Made by a program: the position numbers and the translations under genes. Shown here in pieces: positions 24,090-27,249 of a DNA stretch of 52,936 nucleotides. Under the pieces are notes generated by a model. It saw only the letters and a list, made by a program, of their open reading frames with translations, was not told the DNA's origin and did no database searches. Position 1 is the stretch's first letter; each line of letters starts with the position of its first letter. The DNA lies in assembly GCF_004010195.1 (NCBI RefSeq), contig NC_057759.1, forward strand, positions 5,921,019-5,973,954, given 5' to 3'. The DNA is from Chiloscyllium plagiosum (lineage: Eukaryota).

Positions 24090-24214
24090 ACAAACCAATC
24101 ACAGAGACTGAGTGTTTGGGAATGACTCTGTGTAAACTACGCAATCAGGAACCAGGCTTTCCCCCATCCCTCATTAGCATTGATGACATCGTCAGTCTAT
24201 AAAAAGGGAGCTCC
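24090..24214 (+). promoter_or_regulatory. H2B promoter (CCAAT, octamer-like ATTAGCAT, TATA), separated from the gene by an insertion
   Basis: CCAAT ~24095-24099, ctcATTAGCAT 24173-24180, TATAAAAA 24198-24205; an octamer just 5' of the TATA box is the established H2B signature. Confidence 0.8.
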
Positions 24215-25138
24215 CTCCCCTCCCTTTCACTGTTTTGATCACACAGCACTGCCCTTTGATGTGAAGGGCAGTGCTTGTCACTGGCCACCCGGGTGTTTTC
24301 CTATCTTCCTGGTGGTGGAAATTAAATAAAGATTCGTGCACTTTGTGTCTTCCACTGTGTCTCACACCTGCACACACACACCTTGGGTGCTGGGGATAAA
24401 ATAAGCACTACCGCAGTTAGGTGGTAGTGTGGGGGTTAAAAAAAAGAAAAAAAGAAAGGAAAAAAAAACAAACAAAAAAAATTAACAGGAGATTAAAATA
24501 AACACTACCGCACTTAGGTGGTAGTGTGGGGGGAAAAAAGAAAAAAAGGGGACTAAGGTAGTTGTCAGGGAATAAGGAAAAAAAAATATTAACAGGAGAT
24601 TAAAATAAACACTATCGCACTTAGGTGGTAGTGTGGGGGTTTAAAAAAAAGAAAAAAAAATAAACAGGAGTGGAGTGCATCATTTCTCCCTTCAACTCTA
24701 TTTTGAAAAAAAAATAAAAAGGGAGCTCCCTCCCCTCCCTTTCACTGTTTTAGATTAAAATAAACACTATCGCACTTAGGTGGTAGTGTGGGGGTTTAAA
24801 AAAAAGAAAAAAAATAAACAGGAGTGGAGTGCATCATTTCTCCCTTCAACTCTATTTTGAAAAAAAAAATAAAAAGGGAGCTCCCTCCCCTCCCTTTCAC
24901 TGTTTTGATCACACAGCACTGCCCTTTGATGTGAAGGGCAGTGCTTGCACTGGCCACCCGGGTGTTTTCCTATCTTCCTGGTGGTGGAATTTGAATAAAG
25001 ATTCGTGCACTTTATGTCTTTCACTGTGTCTCACACCTACACACACACCATGGGTGCTAGGGGAAAAAATAAGCACTACCGCACTTAGGTGGTAGTGTGG
25101 GCGTTAAATTAAAAAAAACAGAATTGAAAGAAAAAAAA
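24215..25138 (+). mobile_element. Tandem stack of 5'-truncated, polyadenylated Tx1-like non-LTR retrotransposon 3' ends
   Basis: Repeated tail cactaccgcacttaggtggtagtgtggggg plus A-tract; GVECIISPFNSIL (24667-24705, 24821-24859) resembles a Tx1 ORF2 C-terminus; flanked by taaaaagggagctcc (24200-24214) and ttaaaagggaactcc (25140-25154). Confidence 0.75.
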
Positions 25139-25197
25139 ATTAAAAGGGAACTCCGAGCCCGCTTTCCCTTATTCTGTGTCTGGAAGTGAGCGGCGCT

Positions 25198-25571
<374 letters not shown>

Positions 25572-25610: not shown

Positions 25611-25651
25611 GGCTCTTTTAAGAGCCACCCACAACCTCCTTGAGACAGCTG
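25611..25651 (+). terminator. Histone 3' stem-loop and downstream element of H2B
   Basis: ccaaa-GGCTCTTTTAAGAGCC-accca at 25611-25626; gagacagctg about 15 nt downstream. Confidence 0.95.

Positions 25652-26850: not shown

Positions 26851-27249
<399 letters not shown>

Follow-up and report, generated by a model that had tools for sequence, protein, structure and literature searches.

To our knowledge, the targets known for Tx1-clade retrotransposons are RNA genes, microsatellites and other transposons. Tx1L of Xenopus laevis targets another mobile element, the DNA transposon Tx1D (PMC4494074, PMC1950540), and its endonuclease was described as nicking specifically, with a role for a hairpin loop (Repanas 2007, PMC1950540). 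The main text of Kojima 2015 (PMC4494074), where 20% of flanks defines a family as target specific, describes two crocodilian families, Tx1-8_Crp and Tx1-4_AMi, that prefer specific LTR retrotransposons and are assigned to the Keno group. Also described there are insertions arranged in tandem around a duplication, and possible transcription from the target. The words "histone" and "TATA" have no match in that main text, and it gives no histone target. More generally, in the literature outside subscription journals, Repbase and Dfam, we found no family of this clade described as inserting at histone promoters or at TATA boxes.

Here we analysed a stretch of 52,936 nucleotides of the shark Chiloscyllium plagiosum (hereafter the window), located in a histone cluster on contig C50 of the 3.56-Gb genome, in which the promoter of an H2B gene is interrupted at positions 24215-25154 (all features below are on the + strand). 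We propose, with a probability of roughly 70%, that the interruption is a stack of 3′ ends from a LINE of the Tx1 clade, which inserts chiefly at the TATA box of an LTR that we take, from its motifs, to be Gypsy-like. In this reading the LINE struck the H2B TATA box, probably as a look-alike, and pieces of both known H2B stacks were copied to other chromosomes, most likely through read-through RNA from the borrowed promoter.

The upstream H2B promoter (24140..24197) aligns to empty paralogs and carries at ~24140 a box that we regard as CCAAT-like and at 24173-24180 the word ATTAGCAT, presumably octamer-like. It is followed by the H2B TATA box (24198..24214), a word common to empty H2B promoters that forms the 5′ copy of the target-site duplication. 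On the other side of the stack are the 5′ UTR and the first four codons (25155..25209), a stretch found transduced to contig C26, the coding region (25198..25571) and a histone stem-loop at 25611. The gene is broken by a 6-nt deletion at ~25310 and a frameshifting 1-nt deletion at ~25329. The preliminary description held that removal of 24215-25154 restores a normal H2B promoter, and a lack of the target word in uninterrupted H2B promoters was to count against it. It stands on both points: over 160 nt the insertion-free flanks differ from an empty paralog (L032) by 7 mismatches and a single 1-nt gap, and among the 36 of 47 promoters parsed by regular expression the word is exact in 13, with variants in the others. 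The left junction is not an assembly artefact, since it is bridged by a 91-nt contig from another study (run X7; depth 28.5, 1 difference) that covers 24158-24248 and is one of 24 listed pieces from 4 runs. Among the pieces listed for runs X2 and X13 none crosses it, which in itself is no evidence against the insertion. The right junction was copied independently on contig C26. An intact-looking H2A gene with an empty TATA box (26860-27249) is located on the same strand, 1.3 kb 3′ of the broken H2B. At another H2B gene, an element 3′ end (L055:2847-3021) is found ~1.3 kb upstream in opposite orientation, away from the TATA box.

Within the stack, all the features and coordinates claimed earlier were reproduced in the sequence. 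Indeed, the TATA-containing word recurs at 24199-24214, 24714-24729 (copy 2) and 24869-24884 (copy 3), and with two changes at 25140-25154 (the 3′ copy); 5′ breakpoints are located at 24215, 24492 and 24671; and a local 155-bp tandem duplication (24597..24906) consists of two copies, 24597-24751 and 24752-24906, that are 98% identical. Unit A (24215..24440) corresponds to the last 226 nt, or 3′ UTR, of the Tx1 LINE; it is 95-98% identical to copies genome-wide, is joined to ORF2 in longer copies, and contains hairpins at ~24245-24277 and 24405-24430 (fold z = -3.2 and -5.3). The cassette that follows (24441..24713) is composed of A-tracts, two 42-46-nt 3′ ends, a 35-nt piece of the ORF2 end (24671-24705) and a spacer at 24548-24578 that had no match outside the window locus among the loci compared. 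Unit C (24885..25108), the second 3′ UTR unit, has the same 5′ junction as unit A, differs from it by ~5% further 3′, and ends in a diagnostic A-rich tail (25109..25139) of which a near-identical version is found in locus L151 on contig C26.

Three blocks are bounded by H2B-type duplications: 24215-24713 (unit A with the cassette), the 155-bp local duplication and 24885-25139 (unit C). As one of the three is a local duplication, a minimum of two insertion events is required, not six. The AACAGGAG words, which follow A-tracts at 24481, 24588, 24660 and 24814, were present as described, but their designation as a shorter relative of the H2B word did not stand: they are the target word of the LTR. 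No H2B-type duplication was found inside the cassette at 24441-24713. The cassette spacer at 24481, 24588 and 24660 is the LTR target word, and like cassettes occur at non-LTR sites; the cassette likely came with unit A from a donor stack.

The attribution of these units to the Tx1 clade is supported by the longer copies. The ORF2 contains Exo_endo_phos (an APE-type endonuclease) and RVT_1 (reverse transcriptase) domains, as seen in L192 and L217. It is 51% identical to Xenopus Tx1L (YTX2_XENLA) with 99% of the query covered, which makes Tx1L the closest named ORF2 (51-52%), and it groups with Tx1L and with turtle and sturgeon proteins (SH-aLRT 100) in a quick tree of 23 rows, midpoint-rooted and with no L1 outgroup. 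Poly(A) tails, 5′ truncation and target-site duplications are all present in the family. Among 40 long loci no intact ORF2 was found, the longest open stretch being 916 aa. In the search for an ORF1 with a gag-like zinc knuckle, four candidate open frames upstream of ORF2 in these decayed copies gave no Pfam match. Genome-wide, a first look with the 226-nt unit returned 1,985 candidates and the 3′ hairpin has 3,527 exact matches; the first 100 of these matches fall in 66 loci, from which we estimate at least ~2,300 loci.

Which target does this family use? It had been proposed that it homes to the TATA boxes of multicopy H2B genes. On contig C1, the first 60 of 66 loci, taken in order of position, were classified by BLAST with naturally empty LTR halves as reference. 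None of the 60 flanks a histone gene (H2A or H2B) and 37 flank the LTR, in a classification that errs both ways (L129 and L135 are likely false, L142 and L147 likely missed). The remaining 23 are at unrelated sites, so that target specificity is loose. Since an RT_RNaseH domain adjoins one of the LTRs, the target repeat is an LTR retrotransposon. The LTR share of flanks (62%) exceeds the 20% threshold of Kojima 2015 and the H2B share (0/60) is below it. Occupancy points in the same direction. From 331 LTR sites with an intact CCAAT-TATA motif we took 70, and 17 of these carry the element directly behind the TATA word (two more carry it within 220 nt). Among 49 H2B copies with sequence 3′ of the site, two are occupied, the window stack and L041 (Fisher p=0.004 for 17/70 versus 2/49). 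For H2A the count is 0/30, a biased figure, as the query includes the TATA box and scoring covered 40 of 93 candidates.

That H2B TATA boxes are struck far above chance is nonetheless correct: the second case alone has P ~6e-5. Likewise borne out is that the element inserts at the TATA box and that the target is rebuilt by the duplication. A family specific for H2B TATA boxes could appeal to these two independent strikes with different 5′ junctions, to an occupancy of ~2/18 when only the best-matching word copies are counted (three of them by eye), and to the unoccupied H2A promoters, a count that carries the bias given above. It is faced with a sample in which LTRs account for 37 loci and histone genes for none, and with an H2B share of ~0.1% of the estimated 2,300 loci; as the main target H2B is refuted, and we consider this explanation scarcely credible. 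With 0/60 loci and 2/49 gene copies, H2B does not make the element a host-multigene-specific retrotransposon of the R2, Keno or Dewa type. H2B is a real but minor look-alike target, its TATA box being likely struck because it is similar to that of the LTR.

Insertions also concentrate at a third site, a TATAAA word within a 41-bp tandem repeat that lies antisense to and downstream of a retroelement integrase gene (L298-L316, on several chromosomes and small contigs); 7 of its 14 loci carry an element within 450 nt. An RNA gene at this site was considered and rejected, no Rfam RNA gene being found. This third TATAAA site points to sequence recognition. The target-site duplications resolved automatically (29/60 loci; median 14 bp) start inside TATAAA or a similar A-rich step, where the endonuclease would place its nick. 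As Ty3 and TRE5-A at Pol III genes illustrate, integration can also be guided by tethering, here of the integration complex to TBP/TFIID at active TATA promoters with no reading of sequence. The LTR, H2B and two CCAAT/TATAAA sites (L016 and L127) do resemble core promoters, and in all 19 copies read the hairpin loop of the endonuclease has 3 residues fewer than that of Tx1L. We nevertheless find tethering quite improbable: the 23 non-LTR sites are for the most part no promoters, H2A promoters are unoccupied in the biased count, and the Tx1L endonuclease is described as nicking its target specifically in vitro (PMC1950540).

Like Tx1L, the shark element targets another mobile element, but it uses the LTR TATA box, the H2B TATA box and a third TATAAA word, with many insertions elsewhere, and its endonuclease loop is devoid of the RDGH tip. 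It resembles Tx1-8_Crp and Tx1-4_AMi as a Tx1 family residing in LTR retrotransposons. The main text of PMC4494074 gives no position within the LTR for these two families, in which TATA targeting may already be known, and both are outside our ORF2 tree.

The insertions in L016 and L127 lie at a TATAAA behind the CCAAT box of what is apparently another repeat family, and those in L232 and L267 occupy a second LTR site, near a word resembling a poly(A) signal ~60-80 nt past the TATA box. The LTR and third-target words are also used by other sequences. A second family that ends in poly(A), distinguished by its 3′ end, is found at these words and is mixed into stacks (L356:3000-4300; L005, L017, L273, L303, L307 and L310). 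Finally, a SINE that looks to us tRNA-derived is present at the same words in L311 and L254:2020-2240, likely mobilised in trans.

We also examined how stacks grow. At non-LTR sites, one duplication often encloses several 3′ ends with the LTR word between them: the spacer is within one mismatch of the LTR word in 10 of 23 non-LTR loci versus 3 of 131 control A-runs, although such spacers do not prove LTR-only donors, since most units sit at LTR loci and spacers are heritable. The block of unit A is such an LTR-word cassette, which explains the AACAGGAG words in the window; these likely arrived with read-through RNA. The cassettes themselves are observed, and the reverse transcription of read-through RNA from a donor stack would deliver several 3′ ends and LTR-type spacers in a single event. 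The junction of an A-tail with TAAA creates a new AATAAA, and this signal is probably the reason why short downstream tags travel along. After each duplication the new copy has an entire TATA box upstream of it and a fresh target downstream, so that the site is struck again.

A 5′ junction is common to several units in 22 of 42 multi-unit loci on contig C1, and the tails of such units usually differ; in L041, three units share one junction and each carries a different LTR-type tag. In 39 same-junction pairs (one per locus), mismatches amount to 69/2328 within the first 60 nt and increase to 133/2356 at 150-250 nt (0.03 to 0.056), some of these pairs being doubtful and the columns not independent, and the between-locus mismatch is flat at ~0.075. 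We infer that a new cDNA often joins the 5′ part of a resident unit by homology, which would give units a common 5′ junction and diverse tails; the competing mechanism is gene conversion. Could local DNA duplication and gene conversion, following a single insertion, account for most of the growth of stacks? Local duplication is indeed a third mode of growth, exemplified by the 155-bp repeat in the window, and together with the common junctions and the fact that, at every distance, pairs within a locus are more alike than pairs between loci, it lends this possibility some weight. As the dominant process it is improbable, given the different tails and foreign spacers of same-junction units (L041 and most of the 39 pairs) and the divergence that grows with distance from the junction. 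One stack (L356:2850-9800, contig C7) is ~7 kb long, with more than 20 units in one LTR, and its repeated junction holds a short LTR piece and an older spacer.

The H2B stacks have apparently served as sources. On contig C26, inside an LTR stack, L151 carries the rare allele of unit C and its tail, followed by the H2B word, the 43-nt H2B 5′ UTR, four codons, a poly(A) and an LTR-type duplication of its own; among 427 hits it is the one closest to unit C. This layout points to the reverse transcription of an RNA running through the window junction. The L151 unit extends 130 nt further 5′ than unit C and is without two alleles common to window units A and C, so that its donor was either a longer earlier state of the stack, possibly with its own promoter, or a chimera. 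On contig C7, ~180 nt of L349 are identical to part of the second H2B stack, its H2B word and junction included. Element sequence is present on both sides of the C7 piece, for which gene conversion at the DNA level would be a possible alternative, and the upstream promoter of the second H2B stack falls in an assembly gap. Both known occupied H2B promoters have daughters elsewhere, which is new here; the daughters were likely copied as RNA from a borrowed histone promoter. Read-through from a source into or out of the target is seen in L151, in L349 and in the LTR-type spacers at other sites. A search with the rare allele of unit C gave four matches, the window, C26 and one each on C10 and C14, the last two being rejected for their other tails. 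The pattern of an A-tract followed by the H2B word, which demands five A's before GGG and misses shorter tags, gave eight: four in the two H2B stacks, C26, C7 and two chance matches with no element.

From which promoter would these RNAs start? The duplication rebuilds a TATA box upstream of each copy, so the copies are likely transcribed from the promoter of their target. In the window, the intact upstream promoter would transcribe the stack in sense and past its last tail into the flank, making the locus a source; the daughters are observed. In the ~6% of the single-cell RNA run X22 that was covered, 0 reads matched, which speaks neither for nor against transcription. The heads of long copies fit transcripts that would start upstream of the element proper. 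In the near-full-length copies L192 and L216, the first nucleotides are LTR sequence that immediately follows the TATA box (BLAST E 9e-6 and 2e-7). Such a head is BLAST-significant in 2 of 14 long copies, the remainder being a 30-nt remnant judged by eye. Other near-full-length copies have a piece of their own ORF2 end and 3′ UTR in front, ending before the first AATAAA, and then a short LTR-like remnant (by eye). No 5′ transduction into clean non-LTR sites was demonstrated, the automatic duplication calls for long copies being mostly uninformative.

With the same targeting, daughters could instead derive from copies with a promoter of their own, either in the 5′ region or, as in HeT-A, in the 3′ region of an upstream neighbour. 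The C26 daughter, longer than the present unit C, would agree with this, and so would one hot target with no recognisable promoter and the many near-full-length copies preceded by their own 3′ piece, which is the layout of HeT-A arrays as described in PMC5537684. Yet the window stack consists of 3′ UTR and 35 nt of ORF2 only, LTR sequence immediately 3′ of the TATA box is present among the heads, and by eye the head pieces end before the first AATAAA; we consider an own promoter unlikely, if a serious contender. Borrowing from the target, our preferred reading, can be extended further. Tentatively, and at less than even odds, the element may be a core-promoter parasite: it would have no self-sufficient promoter and cut in TATAAA, the duplication placing an entire TATA box before each copy. 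Every insertion, even a 226-nt tail, would turn into a source of transcripts, and host promoters active in the germline, H2B among them, would act as relays. The heads would then be captured target or own-tail sequence that anneals the cDNA to empty or occupied targets. If so, stacks would be readable logs of jumps from donor to daughter. On contig C1 at ~81.9 Mb, a complete 5S rRNA copy (L137:6064-6188; Rfam) is fused directly 5′ of a 628-nt element 3′ piece, a chimera that is possibly a SINE precursor.

Several of these behaviours have precedents. For L1, flanks transduced at the 3′ end mark source loci, and chimeric copies arise when cDNA is joined by homology to a copy resident at the target; the shark element differs by showing both read-through and joining routinely, inside stacks at one rebuilt site. 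SINEU/Tx1-Mar and R2 share with it tandem insertions that sandwich a duplication, recurrent added heads and a proposed transcription from the flanking target (main text of PMC4494074). Here, however, borrowing would concern Pol II core promoters of the TATA type, among them that of a protein-coding host gene, and the cut would fall in the TATA box itself; the daughters provide genomic evidence. The telomeric arrays of HeT-A and TAHRE are also head-to-tail, and upstream sequence is described as promoting the copy and buffering 5′ loss (PMC5537684). The shark element is not telomeric and belongs to another clade, and its promoter is likely that of the target rather than of the upstream copy.

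Altogether, the kind of element and LTR-preferring Tx1 families are known; what is new is that H2B promoters are colonised and then act as sources. With its three natural target words and its shortened recognition loop, the endonuclease offers a simple system to address how Tx1 specificity relaxes or shifts, and locus-specific spacers permit the tracing of sources over ~2,300 loci. A protein-coding multigene family receives the overflow of a LINE that homes to Pol II TATA boxes, and the promoters of this family seem in turn to supply the genome with copies. Target choice would be linked directly to expression, provided that promoters are indeed borrowed.
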